Below are positions 13,236 to 54,420 of a DNA stretch of 64,000 nucleotides, piece by piece (within the stretch, counting starts at the first letter, position 1; each line of letters starts with the position of its first letter). A program made the position numbers and the translations under genes. The DNA comes from a virus. The stretch is taken from positions 1 through 64,000 of IMG/VR virus record IMGVR_UViG_3300045988_114765; one strand, given 5' to 3'. Below the pieces are notes generated by a model. That model did not search any database. It was not told where the DNA came from and saw only the letters and a list, made by a program, of their open reading frames with translations.

Positions 13236-14042
13236 ATGATAACATCAGTAAAAATAAAAGACAATACAAAAACTCCTTTTGAATATGCTTCTGACATAGA
13301 AGCGTTTGAAAATAGTAGAGAATTTATTTTCAAGCCAGGAGTGAATGTGATTGTAGGTAAAAACGGTAGTGGAAAATCAACTTTGCTTAACATCATATCA
13401 ATGTATGCGTTATGCGAGAAATCCATGTGCTCTGAAATACCGATCGAGGCACTGGATTTTCCACCTATATTTGATGATGATGATAAGGTTTTTGATGGGA
13501 TTGATATATCATCCGATTATGCAGGGAAAGTATTCCGTTTATTGCCATCGGCGGAGATGAATCGAGATAGCGTATTGAAAAACATCAGCAACTTAGATTT
13601 GTATGTGAATAATATTAGAAGATCTTATGGAGAGAAAGTGGTGTTATCATTGGAATCACTTTTCAATTTAATGTTCGGTCAAAAGGATTATACGTTTCCA
13701 ATACAAGATCTTGTAGAATACAAGAAAAAATCAAATGCGTTTTGGATTAAAAGGATTGATAGTCTGTTGAAGTATTATAAAAGAAACCGCATAACATTAG
13801 CAGAAAGCAGTTTTGAATACACGGTTCTCATGGATGAGCCAGACAGGAATCTTGACATTGACAATATAATGCAAATTTATAATGTATTATCATTCCATAA
13901 ACCACAAACACAAATTATAGCCATAGTACACAATCCGGCATTGATTTACAAGTTAAGCAAATTAGATTGTGTGAATTTCATAGAGATGACAGAAGGATAT
14001 CTAAAGGATGTTGTCAATTTCATAAGTGAAACAAATAAATGA
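13236..14042 (+). CDS. ABC/SMC-type P-loop ATPase (AAA_15/AAA_21-like), 268 aa
   Basis: Walker A (GKNGSGKST); Walker B (VLMDEPDRNLD). Confidence 0.7.
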   Translation: MITSVKIKDNTKTPFEYASDIEAFENSREFIFKPGVNVIVGKNGSGKSTLLNIISMYALCEKSMCSEIPIEALDFPPIFDDDDKVFDGIDISSDYAGKVFRLLPSAEMNRDSVLKNISNLDLYVNNIRRSYGEKVVLSLESLFNLMFGQKDYTFPIQDLVEYKKKSNAFWIKRIDSLLKYYKRNRITLAESSFEYTVLMDEPDRNLDIDNIMQIYNVLSFHKPQTQIIAIVHNPALIYKLSKLDCVNFIEMTEGYLKDVVNFISETNK

Positions 14043-23132: not shown

Positions 23133-23411
23133 ATGGGCAGATCAACAGAGTACTACAGGACTCATCCCGAAGCCAGGAAGAAAAAGGCTAAAAAGGACAA
23201 GGAGATAAATGCCAGACCGGAACAGAAAGCCAAACGCCGAGAGCTTGGTCGTAAAAACTACGAAACGGACAAGAAGAAGGGTAAGGGCTGGAGGAAAGGC
23301 AAGGATTGTTCTCATACCAAGAACGGTCTTAGATATAAATCAGTAAAAGCTAATAGGGGATCCAAATCGGATACAAAAGGTGACAAAAATGCACGAGGAG
23401 ATAGCAAATAG
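23133..23411 (+). CDS. highly basic Lys/Arg-rich small protein, 92 aa
   Basis: Amino-acid composition. Confidence 0.45.
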   Translation: MGRSTEYYRTHPEARKKKAKKDKEINARPEQKAKRRELGRKNYETDKKKGKGWRKGKDCSHTKNGLRYKSVKANRGSKSDTKGDKNARGDSK

Positions 23412-24513
23412 GATAGATATAAGAAGGATATTCAAAACCTCCAAACAGGTTATGGAAGAGGCGTATGAGAATATCTTAAAATACAGGCGGGGAGAGCTTA
23501 TCCCCGCTAAAACCGGATACGATTATATTGATGAGGCTTTGCTTGGAGGTATTTTCCCTCAGCATGCTATTGCCATAGGGGCTCGGCCATCTGTGGGTAA
23601 ATCGTATGTGGCCCAAAAGATATTGGAAAATGTGATGAATCCGATGATCAACCCACAAGCAGAAGATTATTTTCTTGTCAATTGCGAGTTCGAAATGAAT
23701 CCTCAAGATCTTCTTCTTCGCAGAATGAGTCAGGATATGAAAAAACGGGCTCCTGAAATATTAAGAAGGCAAGATTCTAATACAGTAGAAGAGATGAGGA
23801 TGTTTGAAATCCTTCAAGGTGAAATCAGAAATAATATAATATACATCGACGCTCCGTGTACGGTAAAAGAGTTTGAGGCGGCTGTATATCATATAGCTAC
23901 TAAGCATAAAGACAAACGTCTTATAATATTTAAAGTCGATCATATTGCTTTGATAAAAAGAATAGGATTGGATCCTAAGTCGGCTATAGATGATTTGGTG
24001 GCGGTTATGAACGAGGCTAAATTAGTATATAAAAACATATTTTTCCTCATCATATCCCAATTCAACAGAGATATAGAAGGAAGGATAAAAAGCCCTCAAG
24101 AGCAGCCTCCCCGTCTTTCTGACTTTTATCAGTCTGATACGCTGGGGCAACTATGTACGTTAATGATAGGTTTGCATAATCCTCGCAGATACGGGCTGGA
24201 CAAGTATATGATATTTGGGAAAGACTGGTATCAGACTCTTGACCGGTTTAAAACTGAAAACAAAACATCATTCAGGACAGCCGGACTGGTGTTTCATCAT
24301 ATACTGAAGGTAAGGCAAGTTAGTATGGAAGAGCTTACTAATACAATCCACCCAGAGATCCTGCCGGGGCATGGATGGATGTACGGGGAGGGAGGGACGA
24401 AGTTCGTGAACCCCAACCAGCCGCCGACGCCGCCCAAGCTCTATACTGTGGAAGACGTTACGAACAATCAAGATCAAGAACAAGAGGTAAAGGAAGAACA
24501 GTCAGTATATTAA
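23380..24513 (+). CDS. dnaB: DnaB-family replicative DNA helicase (RecA-fold C-terminal domain), 377 aa
   Basis: Walker A (GARPSVGKS); H2-like motif (IIFKVDHIALI); SQxNR motif (IISQFNRDIEGR). Confidence 0.8.
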   Translation: MTKMHEEIANRIDIRRIFKTSKQVMEEAYENILKYRRGELIPAKTGYDYIDEALLGGIFPQHAIAIGARPSVGKSYVAQKILENVMNPMINPQAEDYFLVNCEFEMNPQDLLLRRMSQDMKKRAPEILRRQDSNTVEEMRMFEILQGEIRNNIIYIDAPCTVKEFEAAVYHIATKHKDKRLIIFKVDHIALIKRIGLDPKSAIDDLVAVMNEAKLVYKNIFFLIISQFNRDIEGRIKSPQEQPPRLSDFYQSDTLGQLCTLMIGLHNPRRYGLDKYMIFGKDWYQTLDRFKTENKTSFRTAGLVFHHILKVRQVSMEELTNTIHPEILPGHGWMYGEGGTKFVNPNQPPTPPKLYTVEDVTNNQDQEQEVKEEQSVY

Positions 24514-25352: not shown

Positions 25353-26066
25353 ATGTACATCAATTTCAGACAACTTACAGCATCAGACATGACTCCTAAT
25401 GATCTCGCTAATCTTCTTGCCATAAGACAGAAGGATTCGGTTATGATCGAAGCCATGCAGGAAGAAGATGCTGGTAGATATATAGAGCTTGGCCTGGTTG
25501 AGAAATTAAAATCAGGCGTGATGAGATTGACCAACAAAGGAACGTCTTTTGTGAATTATATAGAGACACCGGAAATGACAGACGAGGTTCTGGAAACGTT
25601 GAAGATTATGATAGGAATGTACGAATCATATTCAAAAGACATAGGTGTCAGCAGAAAAGAAGCGGAATCCAGATTGTGTTGGTTTATGGGTAATACTTCA
25701 TTTAAGAAAGAGGTCATACTTCAAGTAACGGAATCTTATATAGCAGAGTCAGGAGATTACACAATGAGCTTATGTAACTTCATATGGAAACCGCCTTCTC
25801 AGGCTTTTTCAGTCCATATGAACCTTAAAAACTCAAAGCTCTTTGACTTAATAGCTGAAAAATTTAAGATCGCTACCGAGCCTTATTTGGAGCCTAAGAA
25901 GAATAAGGAAATGGATTGGTTGTTTGCCGTATCTAAATTGCCTACGCCGCCGGATAAAGGCAATCCGGATTATTTGTTTACCGGAAGTGCGGAAACAGAC
26001 AAAGAACGATTGAAAAACATAAAAACATATTTATTTAACAAAATTAGAAAGCAATGGAAAAAGTAA
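25353..26066 (+). CDS. hypothetical protein, 237 aa (first gene of the ACP/NfeD/flotillin operon)
   Basis: Overlaps the start of the ACP gene. Confidence 0.5.
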   Translation: MYINFRQLTASDMTPNDLANLLAIRQKDSVMIEAMQEEDAGRYIELGLVEKLKSGVMRLTNKGTSFVNYIETPEMTDEVLETLKIMIGMYESYSKDIGVSRKEAESRLCWFMGNTSFKKEVILQVTESYIAESGDYTMSLCNFIWKPPSQAFSVHMNLKNSKLFDLIAEKFKIATEPYLEPKKNKEMDWLFAVSKLPTPPDKGNPDYLFTGSAETDKERLKNIKTYLFNKIRKQWKK

Positions 26067-26305
26067 GAATTAGAAAGATAATAGAGGATATAATTATTAC
26101 TCAGTTTCTTAATTCGGAAATGGATATAGTTCATGAAGAAGATGTGTCGTTTAAAGAACTTGGATTAGATTCTATTGATCGAATTGAGCTTGATGCGATA
26201 GTGGAACAAAAATTCAATATCGTTATTATTGATTATGATACAGAATCCATCAAAGATATGACTGATCTTGTTTACAAAATAATAACAGAAGGATATGGGA
26301 GATGA
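26054..26305 (+). CDS. acyl carrier protein-like, 83 aa
   Basis: GLDSIDRIELDAIVEQKFNI matches the ACP phosphopantetheine-attachment motif (DSL/DSI); acidic 4-helix-sized protein. Confidence 0.6.
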   Translation: MEKVRIRKIIEDIIITQFLNSEMDIVHEEDVSFKELGLDSIDRIELDAIVEQKFNIVIIDYDTESIKDMTDLVYKIITEGYGR

Positions 26306-26789
26306 TATAATTTTATGCATGGCTTTAATAGCGTCATTTGCTTTTGTTATACAGTTTTTGTTGTCGATATTAGGATCTGATCTGGATACGGATATTGACA
26401 TTGACAGTGCTTCTGATTTAAGTATGTCTTTGTCGGACATTATATCATTCAGGGGCATAACACATTTTATTCTTGGATATAGCTGGACTACCTACTTTTC
26501 GGGTTCCCATTTAGTAGGGGTTGTGATAGGGTCGCTTTTCTTTATCGTTTTGTTTTACGTATATAAGTTACTTTTTAAGTTAGAGCAAGAAATGGTGTAC
26601 GAATGTCCGGAAGATTTAAATGGCAGAGAGGTGGAGATAGTGTTTAGATCAGGGAAGAATCATTATATGGTAAATATTTCGAAAAATGGAAGACAAGAGC
26701 AAATGAGAGTAAAATGCTTGTCTGGAAAAACCTACAAAAACGGTGACAAGGTGAATATAAAATATGAAGAAGGAGAATTAAGTATCTAA
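26295..26789 (+). CDS. NfeD/YqiJ-like membrane protein (TM helices, acidic patch, C-terminal OB-fold-like domain), 164 aa
   Basis: Domain architecture and adjacency to the flotillin gene. Confidence 0.55.
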   Translation: MGDDIILCMALIASFAFVIQFLLSILGSDLDTDIDIDSASDLSMSLSDIISFRGITHFILGYSWTTYFSGSHLVGVVIGSLFFIVLFYVYKLLFKLEQEMVYECPEDLNGREVEIVFRSGKNHYMVNISKNGRQEQMRVKCLSGKTYKNGDKVNIKYEEGELSI

Positions 26790-26820
26790 TTTTTTTATCA
26801 ACAATTAAATTTTAAAAGTT

Positions 26821-28521
26821 ATGACAACAATCATGCACGTGTCAGCTATCTTAGCCGTAGTGATTATTTTGGCAATCATCGGAGTCTTATCAGGGTATCG
26901 TAGATGTAAACCTAATCAGGTCTTGGTCGTTTACGGTAAGACAGGTGGGGAAAAGAAATCGGCGAAATTATATCATGGTGGAGCGGCATTTGTCTTGCCT
27001 ATTATTCAAAGCTATGATATTTTGTCTATGGAGCCTATGCAAATAGATTGTAGGCTCACCGGTGCTTTGTCGTCTCAAAATATCAGAGTGGATGTACCTA
27101 CTACTATTACAGTAGCAATCAGCACAAATCCTGAAATTATGCAGAATGCAGCAGAAAGGCTTTTGGAGATGGATACTGAATCTACTGAAAATCTTATTAC
27201 GGATATTGTTTATGGCCAAATGCGTTTGATCATTGCTGGAATGACGATTGAAAAACTTAATTCTGACAGGGATGAGTTTTTGGATAAGGCAAGAAAAAAC
27301 ATTGATAACGAACTTAATAAGTTAGGTCTTTACCTCCTAAATATCAACATCAGTGACATCAGAGACGAAGCCGGCTATATCATGAATCTTGGCAAAGAAG
27401 CTAAAAGTAAGGCCCTGAACGAAGCACAGGCTAATATCGAAGAACAGGAAAAGCTGGGTGCTATTAAGATTGCTGTACAGCAAAAGGAAAAAGAAACGGC
27501 TGTAGCTAATACCCAAAAAGAGCAAGAGATTCAAATTGCCTATACTGAAAAAGAAAAGGAAACGGTAGTAGCTGAAACAAAGAAAGAAAAAGAAGTAGCT
27601 TTGGCTTTAACCGATAAAGAAAAACAGATCGGTGTAGCTCAAGCCGATAGAGATAGGGCTGCGGTTATTGCAAAGACTTTGGCTGATAAGGAATCAGCGA
27701 TCGCAAAATCTAAGGCAGAACTTGAAGTAAACAAAGCTGAAGCCGAAAGAATGGAAGAAGTCGGGAAGAATAAAGCTGAAGCTGATAAACAGGCAGCTAT
27801 AGCAATCCAAGATTCCGAAGCTCAGATCAAGAAAGCTGAAGCTGAGAAAAACGCATCTGTGGGTTATAACAATGCCCAGAAAGAGGTTGCTGTATCAGAA
27901 TCAGAGCTACAGGTTATCAAAGCTCAATCAGAAAAGAAAGCCGGAGAAGAGAGAGTTAAATCGGAAGCGGCTGTGAAAACGGCAAAAGAGCTTGCTGATA
28001 AAGAAGTGGAAGAAGCTAAAGCTAAGAAGGTTCAAGCTGCGCTTAAAACTGAAAAGATTGTGCCGGCTGAAATTCAGAAGCAGGAGGCTATGTTGCAAGC
28101 TGATGCTGAAGCTGAGAAAATCAAACGTCGGGCTGATGCCGAAGCAGCAGCACATTTGGCAAAAGCAGAAGCGGAAGCAAAAGCTATTCAGATGAAGCTG
28201 GAGGCAGAAGCCGAAGGTAAGAAAAAGTCGTTGATGGCAGAAGCCGACGGATTTAAGGCTATGGTGGAAGCAGCAGAATCCAATCCTCAGATAGCCATCC
28301 AGTACAAGATGGTTAATCAGTGGAAAGAAATTGCTGGAGAACAGGTTAAGGCGTTCGAGCACATTAACCTCGGAAATATCATGGTATTTGACGGCGGTCA
28401 GAACAGTACCGGTAATTTCCTTAACAATGTTGTTAAGACCGTCGCTCCGGCATTGGGAGTCATTGATCAGCTTCCGATTGCAGATATTTTAAAGAAGCTA
28501 AAAGGAGATGACAAAAAATAA
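26821..28521 (+). CDS. flotillin/YqiK-like SPFH (band-7) protein with a long Ala/Glu/Lys coiled coil, 566 aa
   Basis: N-terminal TM helix followed by YRRCKPNQVLVVYGK...GGAAFVLPIIQSYDILS, which matches the YqiK/flotillin core; coiled-coil repeats. Confidence 0.8.
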   Translation: MTTIMHVSAILAVVIILAIIGVLSGYRRCKPNQVLVVYGKTGGEKKSAKLYHGGAAFVLPIIQSYDILSMEPMQIDCRLTGALSSQNIRVDVPTTITVAISTNPEIMQNAAERLLEMDTESTENLITDIVYGQMRLIIAGMTIEKLNSDRDEFLDKARKNIDNELNKLGLYLLNINISDIRDEAGYIMNLGKEAKSKALNEAQANIEEQEKLGAIKIAVQQKEKETAVANTQKEQEIQIAYTEKEKETVVAETKKEKEVALALTDKEKQIGVAQADRDRAAVIAKTLADKESAIAKSKAELEVNKAEAERMEEVGKNKAEADKQAAIAIQDSEAQIKKAEAEKNASVGYNNAQKEVAVSESELQVIKAQSEKKAGEERVKSEAAVKTAKELADKEVEEAKAKKVQAALKTEKIVPAEIQKQEAMLQADAEAEKIKRRADAEAAAHLAKAEAEAKAIQMKLEAEAEGKKKSLMAEADGFKAMVEAAESNPQIAIQYKMVNQWKEIAGEQVKAFEHINLGNIMVFDGGQNSTGNFLNNVVKTVAPALGVIDQLPIADILKKLKGDDKK

Positions 28522-28582
28522 ATACAATGGCCCAAGGTTACACTTGGGTCTAATTGAAGAAATAAAAGCAGCATTCATAGAT

Positions 28583-28598
28583 TTCCTGCCGGCAGGAA
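28583..28598 (+). terminator. GC palindrome TTCCTGCCGGCAGGAA followed by a T-rich tract; candidate terminator after the flotillin gene
   Basis: 16-bp perfect palindrome. Confidence 0.35.
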
Positions 28599-28719
28599 CA
28601 GTGCTTTACTAATTACGATATTTTTAACATGGATTTTGGACAAGATTTAGAACCAGAAGAACTGACCAAGCATTATGATCAGTATTATGGAATTGATTTT
28701 GAAACAGAAGAAGAGGAGG

Positions 28720-29034
28720 ATGAAGAGTATGACTGACGAGGAATTTGTATTGGATAATAAGAAAAGGGTTGTTGTAAGAAAAAGAATGTCTTATTTAAGC
28801 AAAGGGGATAAAGTGTGGATTGTGTCTTCCGAAGGGTATCTGCTACACACGGACGTGGTTAGAGCCGACCGCGGCCGATCTTATGTGGATATAGACGGTA
28901 TCCTGTATTGGAAACGAGGATTGGATGGCAAGCATCGTAATCGTAATAACTACATGCAGTTTGCCATGACACCAGAAGACGGTAAGAAGTATGTCGTATA
29001 TTACCCAGAAGGATTTAAAGACAATGACTTATGA
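28720..29034 (+). CDS. hypothetical protein, 104 aa (start moved to ATG 28720, which has a GAGGAGG SD)
   Basis: ORF plus SD. Confidence 0.45.
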   Translation: MKSMTDEEFVLDNKKRVVVRKRMSYLSKGDKVWIVSSEGYLLHTDVVRADRGRSYVDIDGILYWKRGLDGKHRNRNNYMQFAMTPEDGKKYVVYYPEGFKDNDL

Positions 29035-30050
29035 TGGTCCCGGAAACGCATTTGCTATATAAGGAGTTTAATGGTGTGAAACGTCTTGCCATATCTTATT
29101 CCCAGATAGATACGTTTCTTACCTGTCCAATGAAATGGTATAAAACTTACGTAGAGGGCAAAAGGTCTACAGAAAAACAAGAAGCTACATCTTATGGTAC
29201 GGTTATCCATAAGACACTGGAATACTTCTTTAAGAACGGAAGACAGCCTTCTGGTAAAGACCTTGGAGAAGCAATAAGTTACTATGCTTACCAAGAAGAC
29301 ATACCTTGGCAATCACCGGAAAATATGATGATAGCCATGAAACAATCTGGGGAGCTTCTTGCTTGGATTGTGGATCTGTTTAAAAAAGACGGGAATAAGT
29401 TTATGATAGCTGATAGTGATCTTAATCCCTGCGAGAAACTTATCAGACACGGTGCTATAGTTGGAGTCGAAGAAGATTTTGTGCTACCATACCGTCTTCC
29501 TAAGCCTGTTGATATAAATGGTGACGTTCATACTCATGTGTACATAGTAGGATCGGTGGATCTTCATCTGGCTATAAAAAGCAAGAACGTAGTTCACCAT
29601 TATGTCATAGATTGGAAATCAGGAAATAAGGTTTTTGATTCTAAGAAATTGGAAACGAATTTACAGCATCCTATATATTCATTTTACATCTATAGAAAAT
29701 ATGGTGGAGTTCTGCCAGATATGAACATCTATTTCTTTACCAGAACCAGGCAGTACCAAAAGGTTAAGGTAAATGAAGAGCGTAAAACAAAATCTATAGA
29801 AATGCTAAATGACACTTTATCTAAAATGTATGATTTTGAAGATAATAGTGTAAAAACATTTCAGGCATACATCCAGGGAGCAGAAGGAGCCAGGTATAGC
29901 AAGCGGCGTGCCACCCTAAGCCAGCCTGTTTCGCAAAACAAGCTACCCTGCCCGTCAGCACTGTGTTATTATTGTGACTTTGGATTACATAACAAAAACG
30001 AATGCCCTTTCTCTTCGGATTGGGATCCGTCTAAAAAGATAAAACGATGA
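29031..30050 (+). CDS. Cas4/RecB-family PD-(D/E)xK exonuclease with an Fe-S Cys cluster, 339 aa
   Basis: N-terminal SYSQIDTFLTCPMKWY; motif II GSVDL; motif III VIDWKSG; C-terminal CPCPSALCYYC. Confidence 0.75.
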   Translation: MMVPETHLLYKEFNGVKRLAISYSQIDTFLTCPMKWYKTYVEGKRSTEKQEATSYGTVIHKTLEYFFKNGRQPSGKDLGEAISYYAYQEDIPWQSPENMMIAMKQSGELLAWIVDLFKKDGNKFMIADSDLNPCEKLIRHGAIVGVEEDFVLPYRLPKPVDINGDVHTHVYIVGSVDLHLAIKSKNVVHHYVIDWKSGNKVFDSKKLETNLQHPIYSFYIYRKYGGVLPDMNIYFFTRTRQYQKVKVNEERKTKSIEMLNDTLSKMYDFEDNSVKTFQAYIQGAEGARYSKRRATLSQPVSQNKLPCPSALCYYCDFGLHNKNECPFSSDWDPSKKIKR

Positions 30051-30551: not shown

Positions 30552-30929
30552 ATGAAAAAAGAAGTCACAATCAAGGAAGATATGGCCGTGCTTTATAAAA
30601 ATACAGGAAAAGAACTATGGATTTATAACGGACTTTTCAGAAACAAGGTGTTGTCTATAAAAAAAGATAAAGCCATTATCATGTGTGAAACTGATGCTGA
30701 ATATGCTGTACTGATAGAAGATAATCAGTTTATTGCCGTAGCAAAAAACATGGATTATGATTACTGCTGCGCATTCACATTAGGTAATGCCGAGGCTTAT
30801 GGGGATCGTATGGGCATATCGTGCAGTGTATGCTTGCTTGAAGATAACGAAGATAAAGCAAGGGAGATGTTGAAAGAGGCGATAATAGAACTTTCAAAAA
30901 ACAGTAAAATAGATTGCGATGGGCTTTGA
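30552..30929 (+). CDS. hypothetical protein, 125 aa
   Basis: ORF only. Confidence 0.5.
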   Translation: MKKEVTIKEDMAVLYKNTGKELWIYNGLFRNKVLSIKKDKAIIMCETDAEYAVLIEDNQFIAVAKNMDYDYCCAFTLGNAEAYGDRMGISCSVCLLEDNEDKAREMLKEAIIELSKNSKIDCDGL

Positions 30930-32340
30930 ACTTAGACCTTACCAAAAAGAGGCAGTAGATGCCGGGCTTAAGTTCCTTACAGGAAGATCTAAGAAGCCTG
31001 GCATAGAAGTCTTGCCGTGTGCAGCGGGGAAGTCTTTGATAATTAGCAAGATAGCTCATGAATTAAAAAGACCTATCCTTGTATTACAGCCATCTAAAGA
31101 GATTCTGGAGCAGAATTATGCGAAGGCTGTATCATTCGGTTCTAAACCTACCATATATTCTGCTTCATGTAAAAAAAAAGAGTTATCGGCTATGACTTAT
31201 GCTACACTTAAAAGCATAAAGAAAGACGTAGCAAGGTTGAAAGATATAGGGATAGACACATTATTGATAGATGAGGCGCATAGCGGGTATTCTCCTGAAG
31301 AAGGTTCTGAATTTATGGAGTTTATGAACAGGTTCCCAGAGGCGAAGGTGCTGGGCTTCACCGCCACTCCCTGCCGCCTCCGAACCTACAGTTCCATGCT
31401 GGAAGGAAACTACAGCAAGCTCAATATGCTGACGAAAGACGAGCATAATTTCTTCAAGAAAATAGTTCATGTGACTCAAATACAAGAATTAACTTCTCAA
31501 GGGTTTTGGTGTCCACTTAAGTACGAACGATGGTCTTTTGATGAATCGGCTCTGATGTTGAACAGCACCGGAGCTGAATACACCAACGAATCTATTAAAG
31601 AAAGTATTGTACGAAATGGCTTAAACAACTCTATCTACAAGCGCCTTCTTCAACTTATGAACGAACGTAAAGCCATTTTGGTTTGCATGGATTCTATTGA
31701 ATCATGTAATAGAATATCAGAGTTCATGAATGCCAAGATGGGAGCCATAACCGGTGTCGTAACATCGCTAACAACCAAAAAGAAAAGAGAACAAATCATA
31801 TCCGATTTCAAAGAAGGCAAGTTGAAGGTGGTTTTTAATTATTCAACGCTTGCTACCGGATTTGACTTTCCTGAACTTGACTGTGTGATGTTTGGGCGTC
31901 CAACATTCTCATATTCAGTATTTTACCAGATTGTAGGCCGTGCCGTTCGCATCCATCCTGACAAGAAAGAGGCACTGATAGTTGATTGCTGCGACAACAT
32001 GAGACGCTTTGGTCGGATAGAAGACCTGACAATCGAGCAATTCCCTTCTAAGGGCTGGTGTATGTTTGCCGGCGATCAACTTCTGTCCAATATAAGGATG
32101 GGTGATATTATTACCAAAGACGAAATCCTTCGCCGGGCAGCCTCGCTTAAATCTGTGAATGGAGATGGTAGGAGAGAAGACGATCTTGACAGTATAATAA
32201 TGTGGTTTGGAAAATATGAAGGAATTAGATTCAAGGACATACCGGTGTCGTATTTTAGGTTCTTGGCTGAGAATATGGCAGTAAAACCAGGAGATAGAAA
32301 AGAAAAGATTATCGAATATTATAATAGAATAAAAGCATGA
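30919..32340 (+). CDS. SF2 DEAH-box DNA helicase (UvsW/ERCC3/type-III-res-like), 473 aa
   Basis: Motif I PCAAGKS; motif II LIDEAH; motif III FTATP; motif VI QIVGRAVR. Confidence 0.85.
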   Translation: MGFELRPYQKEAVDAGLKFLTGRSKKPGIEVLPCAAGKSLIISKIAHELKRPILVLQPSKEILEQNYAKAVSFGSKPTIYSASCKKKELSAMTYATLKSIKKDVARLKDIGIDTLLIDEAHSGYSPEEGSEFMEFMNRFPEAKVLGFTATPCRLRTYSSMLEGNYSKLNMLTKDEHNFFKKIVHVTQIQELTSQGFWCPLKYERWSFDESALMLNSTGAEYTNESIKESIVRNGLNNSIYKRLLQLMNERKAILVCMDSIESCNRISEFMNAKMGAITGVVTSLTTKKKREQIISDFKEGKLKVVFNYSTLATGFDFPELDCVMFGRPTFSYSVFYQIVGRAVRIHPDKKEALIVDCCDNMRRFGRIEDLTIEQFPSKGWCMFAGDQLLSNIRMGDIITKDEILRRAASLKSVNGDGRREDDLDSIIMWFGKYEGIRFKDIPVSYFRFLAENMAVKPGDRKEKIIEYYNRIKA

Positions 32341-37555: not shown

Positions 37556-40500
37556 CTATTTGTAACTAACGTCATCGTCTCCTTCCGAATCAGGAGTAGC
37601 GCCGATGAAGAACATCATTGACTTGTTGTTTGTCTGCTGCCACCAATTATAGGCGCGCGCTACGTCTTCCGGCGTCTTGATATTATACCATTGTTTGATA
37701 AACGTCTGTTTGGCAAGTTGCCTAAATAACTTAGACTCTCCTTTGTATGTGCCGGATGTTACTTTATCAAGTGAGTAATTCCTAAGATCAGTAAGATCCT
37801 TCAACTTCCGCCCCATGACAAACGGGTCGTTAATGATATCTACAACGTTAAGCTCCATAATAAACGGCATCTGTGAAGCTATTTCGTTTATGGTTCTGAA
37901 TCCGACATAGGATCCAAATTGAGTAAGCCAACTTTCTTCGTTTTCATCATCATCACGCCATCCGGCAAGAAGCATGGATACGGCTTGCATGATAAGGAAC
38001 GTGCCGGCATAGACACTGAGACGTTTTATATTGGTTTTCTCTACCTCATTCATATTGTCTTTATTTTCGTTCCAGGCATCTATGATGTTTTTCATACCAG
38101 ACTCGGAAGCTAAGCTAAATGTTTTGGCTATCATATTCTTTAACGTAATTGACAGTCCTTCCTCTTCTTGCATTGTCTGGAAATTGAAGCCACGTCTTTT
38201 CCACAGACGTTGAGCCGCCAGCACCAACCATCCTCGGTGGGCGGTCATGAACCTGGCTATCCAGTTGCGCGATGCGGCAGTTCGGTTTTCTTCATTCAAA
38301 GATCCGCTACATATCTGCGACAAGCTACGAACTTGATTTCTGGTTATAGCCATCTGGGTTTCAACTTCCTCAACAGTAACACCCGATCCGGGCTTTACAA
38401 CCACCTTCCCATCCACGACATCTACCATACTCCATAAAGTACGATCTTTTAATGCATTCCATTCTCTTTTTATGGTACTCTGTTCTTTATTGCGTTCTTT
38501 TTCCATCTTGAAATCTTGGAACGTGTAGAACCGACCTTTGTAATAACGAACATTGTCCATAGTAGCAATCATAACCTGCGGATCAAGAGGGTAGTTCAGG
38601 ATTTCCATAAAAGCATACATAGGTGAACGCATTAAGGTCCTGGCCGCTCTATTGTATCCGGCACCATACATTCTGTTTCGTATGTTGAAAATCCCCATTC
38701 TCTCACCTATGACATATAATTTGCTTTTCCTATCTATGTCTCCGGTTTCTGCTATACAAGATGGCGCAAGACGTGAAAACTCAGCCGATGCGTATTTAAG
38801 GGAATCTTTGCTTATATACTGTCCTACGGCAGATTCCATGATGAGGTTAATATGACCTGTTAAGGCGCCAGTAGCTGCCACAAACGGGGACAGCGCCAGG
38901 TTCATGACCGACATAAATCTTTCAACGGCCATCATTATCCTGGTAAGGTCTACTGTGTACCCACCGATGTTTACCGTCAGTTTCTTGGTGTTCATCCTAA
39001 TGCCATAATAATGATCGTTGAAGAAGTCCCTGAACATCTGATATGCTTGGGTTGCTTCAGCCTTCTTACCGCCTTCAAATTGTTTGTTCAGCAACATCTG
39101 CTCCAGTCCTTGGGCAAGCTCTATAGACTTCTGCTTTTCGTTGTATAACGATGACTGCATCATAAGCATCGAATAAGAGTAGCCAAAATCGTGAGATACA
39201 TCATCTTGGTTCTCCAATTCATATATGTAGTATTTAGGTATAGATCTAAGTCTGTCTTCCGGATCATATACTTCCCCTTGCCTGGTTTTACCGTATAGAG
39301 AATCGTCTACTCTATCCAGGCACAGATCTGATACAAAATTACGAACCGTATTTTTGAAGTTAATACCCAATCCTTCTACACGTTCTATGTCTTGTTTGGA
39401 TATCTGTGGAATAGCATACAGGTTCGGACTCTGCTCTTTGTATAGATCAAGGGATTGTCTTTTTATTTCCTTGAGTTTTTGAATCATATTCCACTGCTCT
39501 ACGTTTTTAGTAGCAACTTCATTACCGTCAGCATCATACTTGATACCAAAGTCATTGAAATACGATTCATCACGATACAGGCTTTTCTTAGGCATTCGAT
39601 GACCATACCCATGATCTTTTACAAAATCAGGATTACGGCCGCTATTTTCGGCTTCAGATTCAGCCACCCATGCCCTTGCAGGGTCGAAAGACAAGTACGA
39701 TATGTCCATGCCATAATCTTGGGTGGATGTACCGTTTTGTACGTCCTTAACCATTTGCGCCACATCTATCTCACCTCGACCGATTTTGTCGATCATAGCT
39801 GCATATCCGGTAGGCGCCATGCGTTTATAGTACGAAAAAACCTGGCTTCTGGCAAATTCATTAACAATAGCATTGGTCTCTTCTATGCCCTCTTCTCTTG
39901 TATTATTTAAAAACAAGCTGGCCATCTTAGCATTAACAGCATTCCTAAAATCTCTACCGTCTAATTCCTTGCTTATACCAAGCTTTTCTGACAGGTAGTT
40001 GGTTTCAGATACGGTAAACAGATATCGGTTATCAGCAGCCTTAAATAGCTTATCCCTTAAAGCCTGAATCCTTTTTGCTTTCTTCGCCGTAGTATGACGT
40101 TGTACGAACTTCCATTCCACTTCCTTGGAGTCAGCAAGAGCATTTAAATAAGACTGATTGACTTCGTTTTCAGCTTTACTGCTTTTAGTAAGGTATTTAT
40201 CAATATCTTCAAGACCCACCATCTTAGCATAATCTATTAAGATAGCGTAATCGGTTTCAATAGCTTCAGATGCGGCCCTAAAAGCATCTCTTTCGGATGA
40301 GGTAAATGTCGCTTCGTTAATTTCTCCGATATCAGCCACATCGCGATTGTTTCCGATTATTTCCTTGATAATGGCCTTATTTTTTTCTATATCTTTTACA
40401 ACAGAATCCACGTCAGTCGCATCTCTATCACTTATCGTAGAACTAATGATATCATGCGCCATTTTGAGATACGAAGCCTTGTTATTTGATTCGGTACGTG

Positions 40501-43500
40501 CCGACTGTTCCGATTCTACATCATTCCAAAACCGATCATTAAATGACAGGTGACCTCCCAACATAAGTGTCTTCAGCGCAGCTTCTCCTCCCGACTCGTT
40601 CTGAATCGTTCTCAATTTTTGCAAAAACGATTCTGATACGGCATTAGTAACATTATTTGATTCCTTTCTCCAAACTTCATTTATAGCTTGTATTTCTTTG
40701 GCCATCTTAAGTTGGTCGCCGGTTTTTTCCACTCTCCTGGTTCCTACATATATGTATTCTGAAGCTGCTTCCTTACGTTGTTTACGAAGCAGTCCTTCTT
40801 CTTCGTAATTGCTGCTTTTAAAATAGGCAACTTCATCAAAATTACCACCGCTATCAATAAAAGGCTGCCTCAATATCCGTTTTTGCCTGGATAGAGCATT
40901 AAGGTATTCTTTGGTTGTTTGAGAAACCGGATGCCCTAATTCTTCTTCAGCCTTTTTGTATATGGATTCCATTCTTGTGGCATAACTTTCGCTAAATTCC
41001 AGTTCCGAATTTTCAGCATCCCACTTTTCCATCTGTTCCGTATAGATCTTTTCCTGCTCGATGGTAAAAATATCGGTATTAACCCTATCAGACGATGGCT
41101 TAAATTTAGCGTTTTCAGTAACCGTATTTCCATCCTTGTCAACTACTTCTCTTTTAAATACGTAATTACGGTTATTGTCAACCACATCACCAATTTCTTC
41201 TTCTGATATCTCTATGTTCATGGCAGTCGCAAACGCTCGCATCTGCGCCAGCTTCTTATTACGATCGTATTTAGCCATATCAAGAGCACTACGAAGGTAA
41301 TTGGAAGTTTTGCCGTCTACTTTCTGAAGCAGTTTTTCAAATTCAGATTTGTTAAAACCATGCTTTTTAGCATATGCCAGGAAGTCGGATATGGCGGGCT
41401 GGGCATTCACCATCGCATTGTAATTGTCTTTGGCAATCATAGCTCCAAGAGCGTTATTGAACGGACTGGAAGAATGCTCTAATATACCGAACCACCTACT
41501 TATCCAAGAGACATCATGTTGAACTTTGTCAAAAAATTCTTTTACTCTCTTTACCTTATCTGCCGGCACATGAAGTTCGTTCATTAACTTATCAAGCAAC
41601 GTACTTTCATCAAGGTCTTGTACTGATTTAATATCAGATTGAATACCATTAATGTCGGCAATGACGGTATTGATCCTATTTGTATAATCCTGCTTTTCAC
41701 GTTCATCAAATTCGGTACTTCTGTTACGGATATATCCTCGAAGATCGTTCATGATCGGAAGAACCTGATTGTTGATAATATCTACGTTCTTTCGATCATT
41801 GGTATTGAAGTGAAGCTTACCGTCTTTGGTATCACCATGAAGGATGGTGTTTACCACATTGCTTAAGTATCTGACCTGGGCTTCGGCTGTGGAGATCATG
41901 CTGTTCATGGCAGCCGCCATCTCATTCTTGTCTATTTCGGTCTCTACTTTATTTATCTTATCTTCTATGGTCTTAAGCTGCTCAAGGGTCATAGACGTAG
42001 TTACAGCCCTATCAGAGCTTATCTGACGTAAGTCTCTTAATGTTTTTCTTAGTGATCTGATCTTAGACTCAAGAAACTTGTTCTTGTTCATAGAAGAAAG
42101 GGAGTATAATGTAAAGTCATTATCCTTTAACAGAGAGGTGTCAAATCCTTTATCTATGTCAGTAATGGCAAGATCACGAATGTTTTTAATAACGTTATTC
42201 AAATCTTGTCTTTGGGTTGATAAAGCTGATTTAAGCCAGCTTACTATTCCAGAGAGAAGCTGCCGGACGCGCCCCAGGAAGGAGGTGGGCTCTACCGGCG
42301 CCTGCGCTGTGCCGGTCTGCATCTCCCTGGCGAGGATCTTTCCAAGAATTTCCCTCCTAACAGCATTATCAAGCTCGGCTCCTTCATATACTTTACCGTA
42401 TGTATTATAATACTGACCTGCATACTGGTTCCACTCTTCTGTGCCTTCTACATCTTGCAGAACAGCCTCAACAGCATTCTGATCTCTGTATGCCTCTACA
42501 AGGAAGTGGGCTGTTTCTTCTACTAAATCAGATAAAGTAGCATCTTCACCAACTGCTATTACGTTATTGGCAATATCCGCCAATGCCTTAGCAGAAGGTT
42601 CATGCCCGTATTTGGTTTGGTACTTCTCTATATAATCGGTCATACCTATGACACTAACGCCAAGCGTTTTCAGTATCTCGACAATAGAATTTCGTTGATC
42701 ACGTTCCTGCCTGCTATAATCTGATACGATCTTAGCTTTAGTATCAGCATAAAGATCGTTGTCTTCTAATATGAATGAAACTACAAGCGCATCAAAATGA
42801 TCGTACTTGGCGTCCAATTCATTGTATCTTCCTGACTTGAGATCGTTCTTTATCTGCTCTTTGCTAACCCTTTCCGTTCCTCCGGTGGCGAGCCTCATAG
42901 TTACCTTACTATTATCCAACGAGCTTATGGTTATCATACCCTGGTCGTTCATGGAAACATCTGAACCAAAATGATTACGGAGCTCGGTGTAGGATAAGGC
43001 TGAATTGAAAAGTCTAATTTGTCCTGTATGACCTTCTCCTGCAAGATAATAGCTTCTTGTTTCAGGATCGAATATCTTAGATCCGGACAAAAGACCTTTC
43101 TTTATAAGGTAGTTAATTATACCACCTTTTGTTGATAAAGAAGTAGAAGCAGAAGCGGTCATGACCGGTATAAAAGACTTGGGATTATTAAGAACATACT
43201 TTCCAGCTTTGTAAGTAATGTCTGCCACGCCATCCACGGCAGATTCTTGAACGGTGCCGGATAAGAATCCTATTCTAATATCATTCCCTCCAGAGCGAAG
43301 AGCTTCTCCGTAATCTTCAAATAATTGACTACGATCGTTCATGAAAAACAAACGAGGCTCTCCGGTCTGATACGTTACACCCACAGGATTAGAATCTGTC
43401 TGTGGTAACTCTTCTGGGCTAAATATCTTAAGACCGTCTTTTATAACCATATAATTAACACCCTTATCCTGTACCATAGATACGGGAGTAAAGTCCGAAG

Positions 43501-43978
43501 ATATAGCATCTTGTAGATACTGCCCGGCGTCTATTCCAGGTCCTTCCGGTACGGAAATGCTTGACGTAACCATAGCATCCACCAACATAATATTATCACC
43601 CAGATTTTGGCTGTAGAATCCAAAGCCCGATTCTTGGATTTCATAAGGTGCATCTGATTTTGACACAAGAACAGGGTTACTCATCTTAGACGCCTTATCC
43701 AGCACCCTTTCTCTATAGGCTTCTGGGATAAGGTCGATGTTAGATTTTACCTTATTATAAGCCTGTTTATTAACAGGTACATTCCTTCTCCAGTCACCAA
43801 AAGCCTTTAAGAACTTATTAGAAAATACGGTTTTAAAAACAGTAGTAGCCCGTTCCCTATTCTCCATAAGAGGAATAGATGCTATTTTATCAAACAACAT
43901 AGACCTATCCCCTGATCTGGTAGAGACAGAAACAACTTTCTTTTTATTATCTCTTTTAATAATACACGTTGATGTCAT
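37556..43978 (-). CDS. giant virion-associated protein (2140 aa), function unknown
   Basis: 6.4-kb uninterrupted ORF at the end of the minus-strand block. Confidence 0.85.
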   Translation of the reverse strand: MTSTCIIKRDNKKKVVSVSTRSGDRSMLFDKIASIPLMENRERATTVFKTVFSNKFLKAFGDWRRNVPVNKQAYNKVKSNIDLIPEAYRERVLDKASKMSNPVLVSKSDAPYEIQESGFGFYSQNLGDNIMLVDAMVTSSISVPEGPGIDAGQYLQDAISSDFTPVSMVQDKGVNYMVIKDGLKIFSPEELPQTDSNPVGVTYQTGEPRLFFMNDRSQLFEDYGEALRSGGNDIRIGFLSGTVQESAVDGVADITYKAGKYVLNNPKSFIPVMTASASTSLSTKGGIINYLIKKGLLSGSKIFDPETRSYYLAGEGHTGQIRLFNSALSYTELRNHFGSDVSMNDQGMITISSLDNSKVTMRLATGGTERVSKEQIKNDLKSGRYNELDAKYDHFDALVVSFILEDNDLYADTKAKIVSDYSRQERDQRNSIVEILKTLGVSVIGMTDYIEKYQTKYGHEPSAKALADIANNVIAVGEDATLSDLVEETAHFLVEAYRDQNAVEAVLQDVEGTEEWNQYAGQYYNTYGKVYEGAELDNAVRREILGKILAREMQTGTAQAPVEPTSFLGRVRQLLSGIVSWLKSALSTQRQDLNNVIKNIRDLAITDIDKGFDTSLLKDNDFTLYSLSSMNKNKFLESKIRSLRKTLRDLRQISSDRAVTTSMTLEQLKTIEDKINKVETEIDKNEMAAAMNSMISTAEAQVRYLSNVVNTILHGDTKDGKLHFNTNDRKNVDIINNQVLPIMNDLRGYIRNRSTEFDEREKQDYTNRINTVIADINGIQSDIKSVQDLDESTLLDKLMNELHVPADKVKRVKEFFDKVQHDVSWISRWFGILEHSSSPFNNALGAMIAKDNYNAMVNAQPAISDFLAYAKKHGFNKSEFEKLLQKVDGKTSNYLRSALDMAKYDRNKKLAQMRAFATAMNIEISEEEIGDVVDNNRNYVFKREVVDKDGNTVTENAKFKPSSDRVNTDIFTIEQEKIYTEQMEKWDAENSELEFSESYATRMESIYKKAEEELGHPVSQTTKEYLNALSRQKRILRQPFIDSGGNFDEVAYFKSSNYEEEGLLRKQRKEAASEYIYVGTRRVEKTGDQLKMAKEIQAINEVWRKESNNVTNAVSESFLQKLRTIQNESGGEAALKTLMLGGHLSFNDRFWNDVESEQSARTESNNKASYLKMAHDIISSTISDRDATDVDSVVKDIEKNKAIIKEIIGNNRDVADIGEINEATFTSSERDAFRAASEAIETDYAILIDYAKMVGLEDIDKYLTKSSKAENEVNQSYLNALADSKEVEWKFVQRHTTAKKAKRIQALRDKLFKAADNRYLFTVSETNYLSEKLGISKELDGRDFRNAVNAKMASLFLNNTREEGIEETNAIVNEFARSQVFSYYKRMAPTGYAAMIDKIGRGEIDVAQMVKDVQNGTSTQDYGMDISYLSFDPARAWVAESEAENSGRNPDFVKDHGYGHRMPKKSLYRDESYFNDFGIKYDADGNEVATKNVEQWNMIQKLKEIKRQSLDLYKEQSPNLYAIPQISKQDIERVEGLGINFKNTVRNFVSDLCLDRVDDSLYGKTRQGEVYDPEDRLRSIPKYYIYELENQDDVSHDFGYSYSMLMMQSSLYNEKQKSIELAQGLEQMLLNKQFEGGKKAEATQAYQMFRDFFNDHYYGIRMNTKKLTVNIGGYTVDLTRIMMAVERFMSVMNLALSPFVAATGALTGHINLIMESAVGQYISKDSLKYASAEFSRLAPSCIAETGDIDRKSKLYVIGERMGIFNIRNRMYGAGYNRAARTLMRSPMYAFMEILNYPLDPQVMIATMDNVRYYKGRFYTFQDFKMEKERNKEQSTIKREWNALKDRTLWSMVDVVDGKVVVKPGSGVTVEEVETQMAITRNQVRSLSQICSGSLNEENRTAASRNWIARFMTAHRGWLVLAAQRLWKRRGFNFQTMQEEEGLSITLKNMIAKTFSLASESGMKNIIDAWNENKDNMNEVEKTNIKRLSVYAGTFLIMQAVSMLLAGWRDDDENEESWLTQFGSYVGFRTINEIASQMPFIMELNVVDIINDPFVMGRKLKDLTDLRNYSLDKVTSGTYKGESKLFRQLAKQTFIKQWYNIKTPEDVARAYNWWQQTNNKSMMFFIGATPDSEGDDDVSYK

Positions 43979-53832: not shown

Positions 53833-54420
53833 TTATGAAACTTCTATTTCATAATGCGAAGCCTTTGTTTCAACTATTAATCTTCTCTCTCCTTCAAACT
53901 CAACGCTATTATCTCCTGGACCAGTAACAAAAGGGAAATCAGATACGGATGTTACATAATCTTTATCACCACCAGAAAAAGACTGACTTTTACTTTGTTT
54001 GTAATTGATAGTCAATTGTGTTTTACCTATCTGAAGAGTTCCAGATAAATTTTTAGTATAAGTGGTGGTAGTTGTAATATCCCCATTTTTATAACAATAC
54101 ATTATAAAGGTGGTAACCGGACTCTTTTTTATATTACTATCCGGACCTGCATGATAAGATTCATTTCCTCCAAATATGCTATAAATGTGACAATAGGGAC
54201 CGACTCTTTTACTTAAAGTTTTAGCCTTATCCTCGACTCCTTTCAAAGATATAGTAACTTTGCTCTTGTATTCAATATCCTTCCAATTGCAGACTCCTTC
54301 ACTTACGTTTCCAACAAACCTGTCATCAACATAAACCTCTATATTCCCCTGCTGATTGGTCTTCAACTGATACTGAACAAGACCTGAAACATCTTCGTAT
54401 CTCCTTTTCATACTCAACAC
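53833..54420 (-). CDS. hypothetical protein, 195 aa
   Basis: ORF; overlaps the stop of the upstream giant gene. Confidence 0.6.
   Translation of the reverse strand: MLSMKRRYEDVSGLVQYQLKTNQQGNIEVYVDDRFVGNVSEGVCNWKDIEYKSKVTISLKGVEDKAKTLSKRVGPYCHIYSIFGGNESYHAGPDSNIKKSPVTTFIMYCYKNGDITTTTTYTKNLSGTLQIGKTQLTINYKQSKSQSFSGGDKDYVTSVSDFPFVTGPGDNSVEFEGERRLIVETKASHYEIEVS

Follow-up and report, generated by a model that had tools for sequence, protein, structure and literature searches.

The question raised by this locus is whether four adjacent genes in a viral genome, one of them coding for a flotillin, form a single functional unit or lie side by side as separate ones. The genes are at positions 25353-28521 of a 64,000-nucleotide stretch of DNA (positions 1 to 64,000 of the IMG/VR virus record IMGVR_UViG_3300045988_114765), which is referred to throughout as the window. 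A first-pass annotation, made from the letters of the DNA and their translations, had described them as a functionally coupled quartet, made up of a protein with no assigned function, a protein like acyl carrier proteins (ACPs), an NfeD/YqiJ-like membrane protein and a YqiK/flotillin-like SPFH protein. All four open reading frames (ORFs) are indeed present at these coordinates on the plus strand, but the reading that we consider probable is a different one, according to which three independent units have come to be neighbours: a gene of the phage's replication backbone (ORF1), an orphan ACP (ORF2), and a host-derived NfeD-flotillin pair (ORF3 and ORF4) that would act as an optional scaffold in the host membrane. 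The features concerned are as follows.

ORF1: 25353..26066, plus strand; 237 aa; predicted winged-helix DNA-binding protein (MarR-like N-terminal domain) of a phage-specific family
ORF2: 26054..26305, plus strand; 83 aa; orphan ACP-fold protein with phosphopantetheine serine Ser40 in the motif GLDS
ORF3: 26295..26789, plus strand; 164 aa; short NfeD-type (NfeD2-like) membrane protein, as judged from its structural model, architecture and gene neighbourhood
Spacer between ORF3 and the flotillin gene: 26790..26820, no strand; 31 nt, AT-rich
ORF4: 26821..28521, plus strand; 566 aa; flotillin (SPFH2 type)
Flotillin-deletion interval: 26793..28622, no strand; the flotillin gene plus 100 nt downstream, precisely absent in about 24 distinct natural haplotypes

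That the DNA belongs to a phage and not to a bacterial contig, as had been supposed, is borne out by the 4-kb region around these genes, which is 92.7% identical to GenBank OR575929.1, the 151-kb linear genome of the human-gut phage csAssE-Sib; the whole 64-kb window is colinear with that genome. The csAssE-Sib record includes terminase, portal, major capsid, muzzle and ring proteins as well as diversity-generating retroelement and TnpB genes, and no bacterial housekeeping genes are to be found in its annotation. Judging from this identity and annotation, and from two giant ORFs of 2140 and 2213 aa, the window most likely derives from a crAss-like phage. In the same record the four genes are labelled “hypothetical protein”, “acyl carrier protein”, “transmembrane protein” and “flotillin family protein”, respectively, and csAssE-Sib is alone among GenBank phages in carrying ORF1, the ACP and ORF3.

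The NfeD-flotillin pair and its bacterial relatives

The assignment of ORF4 as an SPFH protein of the YqiK/flotillin kind with a long coiled coil agrees with its two Pfam domains, both of which score above their gathering thresholds (GA). The Band_7/SPFH domain (PF01145) is matched at 3.4e-25 (89.5 bits, GA 23.6) over residues 30-211, i.e. 26908-27453, and the C-terminal Flot domain (PF15975) at 1.1e-8 (35.6 bits, GA 27) over residues 450-559, i.e. 28168-28497. A BLASTP alignment with E. coli YqiK extends from end to end (23% identity, E 8e-17), while reading the sequence by eye gives an N-terminal hydrophobic anchor at about residues 5-25 and a long middle part, rich in Glu, Ala and Lys, of coiled-coil character; the length of the coiled coil varies within the phage clade, whose flotillins have 459-595 aa. 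Since the score against the NCBIfam FloT equivalog NF058507 (138.1 bits) is far under the cut-off of 700, ORF4 is to be regarded as a homologue of FloT and not as an orthologue.

For ORF3 the situation is rather different, as the proposal that it is an NfeD/YqiJ-like membrane protein finds no backing in sequence comparison but is favoured by predicted fold, architecture and synteny. Neither the NfeD (PF01957) nor the YqiJ (DUF1449) profile matches ORF3 or 38 members of its family, even at E<=1-10; neither family turned up when Pfam, NCBIfam, PHROGs and PADLOC were searched with ORF3 and its bacterial homologues; and alignment of the ORF3 family with E. coli YqiJ using hhalign gave a probability of 4%. 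Membership of NfeD/YqiJ at the level of sequence was rejected on these grounds, as was a weak match to a P21-type holin (E 0.073), which lies below any cut-off. An AlphaFold2 model based on a 38-sequence alignment (predicted local distance difference test score, pLDDT, of 73.8 overall and about 80-85 in the β-domain) has transmembrane (TM) helices at residues 2-27, 52-69 and 72-100, a disordered acidic DxDxD loop at 29-47 and, at the C-terminus (112-163), a β-domain of five to six strands resembling the oligonucleotide/oligosaccharide-binding (OB) fold. The fold matches closest to this predicted structure are the C-terminal domains of NfeD proteins. Short NfeDs have been defined as proteins of about 140-165 aa with three N-terminal hydrophobic stretches, a short hydrophilic linker and an all-β, OB-like C-terminus, and the NfeD2 partners of SPFH2 flotillins are encoded in the same operon and have very low sequence similarity to other NfeDs (Hinderhofer et al. 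2009, PMC2636767). ORF3 corresponds to this short, NfeD2-type class both in architecture and in its genomic association with an SPFH gene, so that its designation as a short NfeD-type protein rests on predicted fold, architecture and synteny, and not on sequence. One bacterial homologue bears the JGI label “membrane protein implicated in reg…”, which we take to be the name of COG1585/NfeD; this served as a lead and not as a test.

It had also been claimed that NfeD and flotillin are a bacterial operon pair, and this is clearly the case here. Flotillin relatives at 61% identity are on bacterial contigs, among housekeeping genes, each with a 165-aa gene on its 5' side. A scan of one genome per species then gave 80 loci with flotillins 62-66% identical to the phage protein, in Bacteroides, Phocaeicola, Parabacteroides, Prevotella, Leyella, Xylanibacter and Tannerellaceae, and 81 of the 82 bacterial loci compared have an ORF3 homologue (37-41% identity) immediately 5' of the flotillin gene. 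In these 82 loci, tblastn found no match to ORF1 or to the ACP within 4 kb of the pair. In neighbour-joining trees the phage flotillins, and likewise the phage ORF3s, form one long branch outside the sampled Bacteroidales genera, to all of which they are nearly equally similar (69% for the flotillin and 38-40% for ORF3, over gap-free columns). A sister subclade of the phage retains the order ORF1-ACP-ORF3-flotillin at identities of 82% for the flotillin, about 76% for ORF1, 60% for ORF3 and 34% for the ACP. The simplest reading of these comparisons is that the pair was captured once, long ago and en bloc, from a genome of the Bacteroidales by a common ancestor of the two phage subclades.

Two bacterial metagenome contigs encode longer flotillins of 659 and 622 aa (L003:6001-7980 and L004:6001-7869), with an internal duplication of SPFH and coiled-coil sequence that may be either a genuine repeat expansion or an assembly artefact.

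ORF1 and the acyl carrier protein

The four genes belong to a long run of genes that all point the same way, in which a gene for a DnaB-like helicase lies upstream (23380-24513) and genes for a PD-(D/E)XK exonuclease (29031-30050) and a superfamily 2 (SF2) helicase (30919-32340) lie downstream; that a phage replication region holds genes for an ACP-fold protein, an NfeD-type membrane protein and a flotillin side by side is thus as first described. The account of four translationally overlapping genes applies to the first three, ORF1 and ORF2 sharing 13 nt and ORF2 and ORF3 11 nt, but not to the flotillin gene, which begins behind the 31-nt spacer. Because short start/stop overlaps are common among neighbouring genes across this genome, those seen here constitute weak evidence of functional coupling. 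A scan for promoters and terminators, which does not cover Bacteroidales promoters, gave counts at chance level.

ORF1 was modelled with AlphaFold2 at a pLDDT of 95.1 and a predicted template modelling score (pTM) of 0.82, and an exhaustive HMMER search places it in a family of 116 representative clusters, with proteins of about 230 and about 175 aa. A weak PADLOC match to LmuC (E 0.0095, below any cut-off) was discarded. Five divergent relatives have the following surroundings.

L277: ORF1 identity 52%; DnaB, 200 aa, ORF1, exonuclease, …, helicase
L278: ORF1 identity 43%; DnaB, 200 aa, ORF1, 118 aa, p119-like
L276: ORF1 identity 31%; DnaB, ORF1, helicase
L273: ORF1 identity 37%; DnaB, 108 aa, ORF1, RlpA-like 126 aa (read by eye), helicase
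L275: ORF1 identity 43%; exonuclease, …, ORF1, end of block

None of the five has an ACP, NfeD or flotillin gene beside ORF1, for which reason the site 3' of ORF1 is best seen as a variable insertion point, with ACP-NfeD-flotillin as its cargo. ORF1 is accordingly taken out of the proposed quartet: on its predicted structure and its neighbours it is a winged helix-turn-helix DNA-binding gene of the DnaB-exonuclease-helicase replication backbone, flanking the cassette but forming no part of it. Among the IMG/VR scans made for divergent relatives of ORF1, two with a single protein were empty and two with an alignment returned the window's own clade only; a hand-made degenerate DNA pattern gave chance matches in IMG/VR and one true locus in JGI metagenomes.

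ORF2 had rightly been identified as an 83-aa ACP-like protein with a phosphopantetheine motif (DSI). It scores 24.4 bits against PP-binding (PF00550, GA 20.8) and 1.7e-7 against PHROG 5934 (“acyl carrier protein”); 60 of 60 sequence matches in the PDB are ACPs, with the serine of LGLDSIDRIEL aligned with the phosphopantetheine (DSL) serine, and the same serine is matched in an alignment with E. coli AcpP. At about 28 bits, however, it is far under every cut-off of the AcpP equivalogs (TIGR00517 and NF002148-51, 66-106), and is therefore regarded as a divergent, specialised carrier and not as a housekeeping AcpP. The csAssE-Sib annotation and the 20 further window ORFs that were examined showed no phosphopantetheinyl transferase (PPTase), acyltransferase or other lipid enzyme. 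With the outcome for ORF2, the checks that the first-pass annotation had itself proposed can be stated together: the Pfam families PF00550 and PF01145 match ORF2 and ORF4 significantly, PF01957 does not match ORF3, and structure prediction for the NfeD OB domain yields the OB-like β-domain already described.

At one locus (L162:6702-7065) the ACP-ORF3-flotillin block is swapped for a divergent 84-aa ACP-like gene in which the motif reads LAFDFF, with no serine, followed directly by a gene for a 62-aa predicted membrane protein.

Loss and selection in the phage population

How far the pair matters to the phage may be judged from natural variants. Two ORF1-anchored scans of IMG/VR gave 160 loci having both flanking anchors (ORF1 at least 96% identical), amounting to 106 distinct segments from ORF1 to the exonuclease. 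A full-length-class segment with the flotillin gene is present in 70 of these 106 haplotypes (59 like the window, 10 having an extra insert of about 355 nt, and one with an in-frame deletion in the coiled coil). About 24 haplotypes lack exactly the interval corresponding to 26793-28622 of the window, with the junction in short T-runs (26790-26796 and 28621-25), and about 11 have other, differing deletions that also take ORF3 or the ACP, one of them (L248) removing ACP, ORF3 and flotillin together and another being the replacement at L162. The flotillin gene is therefore missing or disrupted in about a third of the distinct haplotypes. Those lacking it are interspersed among those bearing it, and a search for repeats that might drive the deletion gave only codon repeats of the coiled coil. 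In all 24 flotillin-less haplotypes both ORF3 and the ACP are intact, and ORF3 is still constrained, with a ratio of non-synonymous to synonymous substitution rates (dN/dS) of 0.078 at a dS of 0.18.

Values of dN/dS for the individual genes, here and above all expressed as means over pairs by the Nei-Gojobori method (NG86), are as follows.

Flotillin: 0.033
ORF3: 0.062
ORF1: 0.046
ACP: 0.445
DnaB (control): 0.051
Exonuclease (control): 0.048
Helicase (control): 0.077

Since purifying selection on the pair is strong, it can be taken to be functional when present; equally, since the genes are dispensable in nature, an essential role in replication or assembly is argued against. By the same measure the ACP protein evolves about ten-fold faster than the pair, while retaining its serine in 48 of 49 variants. 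Its polymorphic sites are densest from helix II to helix III (14 of 27; for helices I and IV together the figure is 7 of 35), with helix limits mapped from E. coli AcpP. The tight coupling of ACP and pair that had been claimed thus reduces to adjacency: there is no ACP within 4 kb in the 82 bacterial loci, the dN/dS values are unlike (0.45 as against 0.03-0.06), and the ACP and ORF3 outlast the flotillin in 24 haplotypes.

Several further features were seen at or near the deleted interval. A perfect 16-nt palindrome, TTCCTGCCGGCAGGAA, is located at 28583-28598, within the recurrently deleted part, and a small ORF lies over the flotillin stop codon, having 50-52 aa in csAssE-Sib and other relatives and 8 codons in the window (28527-28553). 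In 23 of the 106 haplotypes, with flotillin present or absent, an insert of about 355-366 nt without an ORF lies between the flotillin gene (or the deletion scar) and the downstream 115/119-aa gene. This insert is a full-length HEARO RNA (L094:9335-9573, plus strand; Rfam RF02033, 112.9 bits, GA 83, E 1.4e-24, z-score of the minimum free energy -6.3); HEARO is the ωRNA class of the IscB/IS605 type. It is absent from the window, where the insertion point would be at about 28684-28687, and has no adjacent nuclease ORF. In the sister subclade a gene of the NAMPT/NAPRTase family (NAD salvage) lies about 7 kb 3' of the flotillin gene (L249:14180-15707 and L250:13880-15707), beside a TnpB (OrfB_IS605/Cas12f-like) gene on one contig; the matching stretch of the window showed no such gene.

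Elsewhere in the window, the early-gene block includes a 268-aa protein (13236-14042, plus strand) with an N-terminal P-loop of the AAA_21/SMC_N type (AbiEii-like ATPase family, 9.5e-11), which may be a conflict-related ATPase. At about 36500-37600 gene orientation flips from plus to minus and the GC skew changes sign, from +0.2 to -0.15; beyond this point the minus strand carries giant ORFs of 2140 aa (37556-43978), 2213 aa (54414-61055) and 971 aa (61048-63963), which match “structural protein” genes of csAssE-Sib.

Explanations of the locus and known systems

According to the reading preferred here, in which backbone gene, orphan ACP and captured pair are independent, ORF2 would be an ACP-fold orphan that entered the same insertion hot spot, immediately 3' of ORF1, and that probably depends on the host's AcpS for its modification; nothing ties its function to the flotillin pair, and it may be a decoy or adaptor, or may merely be under relaxed constraint. 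The phage flotillin would insert through its N-terminal anchor into the cytoplasmic face of the host inner membrane and oligomerise through its coiled coil and Flot domain, either alone or mixed with the host's flotillin, which is about 65% identical. Because ORF3 is intact and constrained after loss of the phage flotillin, it may act with the host flotillin, and can probably pair with it. Together with its NfeD partner the flotillin might serve as a scaffold or holdase, keeping membrane proteins stable and the membrane intact; the analogy is with S. aureus, in which FloA and NfeD are reported to stabilise unfolded proteins within membrane microdomains (PMC11222466). Such a scaffold might boost or prolong productive infection under some host or environmental conditions; the pair would then be an accessory module of host-like kind and conditional value, and not an essential phage function.

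A number of points weigh against this interpretation. The haplotypes were ascertained via ORF1, mostly from one IMG/VR dataset, and some of the deletion variants could be assembly artefacts. The dN/dS values are pairwise means in a recombining population and do not come from site models. The holdase or scaffold role is carried over by analogy from distant Firmicutes homologues, and the host of the phage clade is known only indirectly. Finally, since the adjacency of ACP, NfeD and flotillin is kept in two subclades, some functional link of the ACP to the pair is possible.

The opposite view, close to what had originally been suggested, is that there is one translationally coupled four-gene operon in which an acylated ACP feeds a lipid-dependent flotillin microdomain serving as a compartment for phage replication or assembly. 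The conserved gene order, the 11-13 nt overlaps among the first three ORFs and the almost invariant modifiable serine would all suit such an operon. It is nevertheless very improbable: relatives of ORF1 occur in five other lineages without the other three genes, the bacterial NfeD-flotillin loci do without a nearby ACP, selection regimes differ strongly between the genes, no acyl-transfer or PPTase enzyme was found (20 further window ORFs, csAssE-Sib annotation), short overlaps are too widespread in this genome to say much about coupling, and about a third of haplotypes have a missing or disrupted flotillin gene while the ACP and ORF3 persist, so that no essential compartment depends on it. 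At the other extreme, the cassette might be host DNA hitch-hiking neutrally, or the window a bacterial or prophage contig. The pair is host-derived and often deleted, as such a view would have it, but it deserves next to no credence, since both the dN/dS values and the surrounding genome refute it: ORF3 and flotillin are held under purifying selection no weaker than that on DnaB or the exonuclease, the pair is kept in two subclades that have diverged to 60-82% identity, and the window is colinear with a 151-kb phage genome that encodes terminase, portal and capsid proteins and lacks bacterial housekeeping genes.

Two narrower explanations carry more weight, although each is still unlikely. In one of them NfeD and flotillin, alone or together with the ACP, function as a conflict module, acting in superinfection exclusion or neutralising membrane-acting defence or abortive-infection effectors, and kept or lost according to the competitors and defences present. 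It is a live rival because the locus behaves as a variable accessory island: presence or absence is polymorphic, through many independent deletions in a population otherwise 96-100% identical; the cargo 3' of ORF1 varies, being RlpA-like in one relative (L273), a serine-less ACP-like gene with a 62-aa TM protein in another (L162) and nothing in a third (L277); a mobile HEARO RNA adjoins the site; and the raised dN/dS of the ACP would fit an arms race. However, dN/dS values of 0.03-0.06 for flotillin and ORF3 are unlike those of typical arms-race proteins, the insignificant LmuC match of ORF1 is the only PADLOC defence-model match, a literature search gave nothing linking SPFH proteins to phage exclusion or anti-phage defence, and an identity of about 65% to a housekeeping host protein suggests conserved biochemistry. 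The other explanation, to which we would give about the same modest weight, concerns the ACP alone, as a decoy or adaptor on a host ACP-dependent enzyme or other partner, redirecting or inhibiting lipid or cofactor metabolism in a manner unrelated to flotillin. This is in keeping with an orphan carrier for which no phage-encoded partner enzymes were found, with scores far under the AcpP equivalog cut-offs, with polymorphism concentrated between helices II and III, with the naturally occurring replacement that reads LAFDFF, and with the intact ACP of haplotypes lacking flotillin; but relaxed constraint would also be expected to give a dN/dS of 0.45, a few haplotypes have lost the ACP gene or carry a truncated form of it, and the gene is short, making estimates noisy. 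A composite of the two, which we regard as improbable (more so than either part), makes the whole ACP-NfeD-flotillin set a conflict cassette, whose scaffold excludes phages or disarms abortive infection while the ACP serves as a decoy against an ACP-binding protein of the host, the two being engaged in an arms race; the polymorphism would then reflect selection that fluctuates from one host strain to another.

Taken alone, the finding is a case of accessory-gene capture. Its wider interest lies in the crAss-like phages, which rank among the commonest viruses in the human gut; to our knowledge, most of their early and middle genes still lack an assigned role, and we know of no settled mechanism for their long-term, non-lysogenic coexistence with Bacteroidales. 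A literature search gave no mention of csAssE-Sib, nor of flotillin or ACP in crAss-like phages. The pair is strongly constrained and yet the flotillin is found in only about two thirds of circulating haplotypes, which amounts to a natural knock-out series; comparing genomes with and without it across hosts and time series could reveal what role bacterial flotillins have in infection, and could also inform the function of flotillin in Bacteroidales, where the pair is near-universal but unstudied.

Among known systems, the chromosomal pair of Bacteroidales consists of these two genes in identical order, separated by a short spacer, and has the same domain layout; it differs in the length of the coiled coil, the phage copies lie on a long branch of their own, and the phage pair is located in a replication module beside an ACP. 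The chromosomal pair is itself uncharacterised, its 165-aa partner being annotated as “hypothetical”. E. coli YqiJ-YqiK is likewise an operon of membrane protein and flotillin, in which YqiK aligns with ORF4 over its whole length; ORF3 also shares with YqiJ an acidic loop (DxDxD) after the first TM helix, but YqiJ has 209 aa as against 164, the hhalign probability is the 4% already given, and there is no match to the YqiJ Pfam family. The pairs YuaF (NfeD2)-FloT (YuaG) of B. subtilis and NfeD-FloA of S. aureus differ in phylum, while the setting here is viral; ORF3 has no detectable similarity to NfeD profiles, and ORF4 stays far short of the FloT cut-off. Where ACPs encoded by phages are concerned (PHROG 5934, “moron/auxiliary metabolic gene”), that of the window has the same small four-helix fold and DSx serine, but differs in being unaccompanied by fatty-acid or polyketide enzymes, in evolving fast and in having a natural replacement without the serine.

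Phage-borne SPFH genes have been noticed earlier, without explanation, as a “flotillin family protein” in Vibrio phage KIT04 and an SPFH lipoprotein in phage GIB1. These are separate acquisitions, the flotillin of KIT04 (a T5-like phage) being 28% identical and having no ACP. Directly 5' of it is an 82-aa ORF, KIT04_049 (L251:4680-4928), with three hydrophobic segments, “DLDD” after the first of them and no β-domain or OB domain, which might represent a shortened NfeD/YqiJ-like partner that this phage acquired independently. In all, what was already known comprises phage capture of host genes as a type of event and the GenBank labels of these genes. What is new is the NfeD-type assignment, on predicted structure, of the csAssE-Sib “transmembrane protein” and of the 165-aa Bacteroidales family, together with the capture of the pair en bloc, the separation of ORF1 and the ACP from it, and the natural series of its presence and absence.

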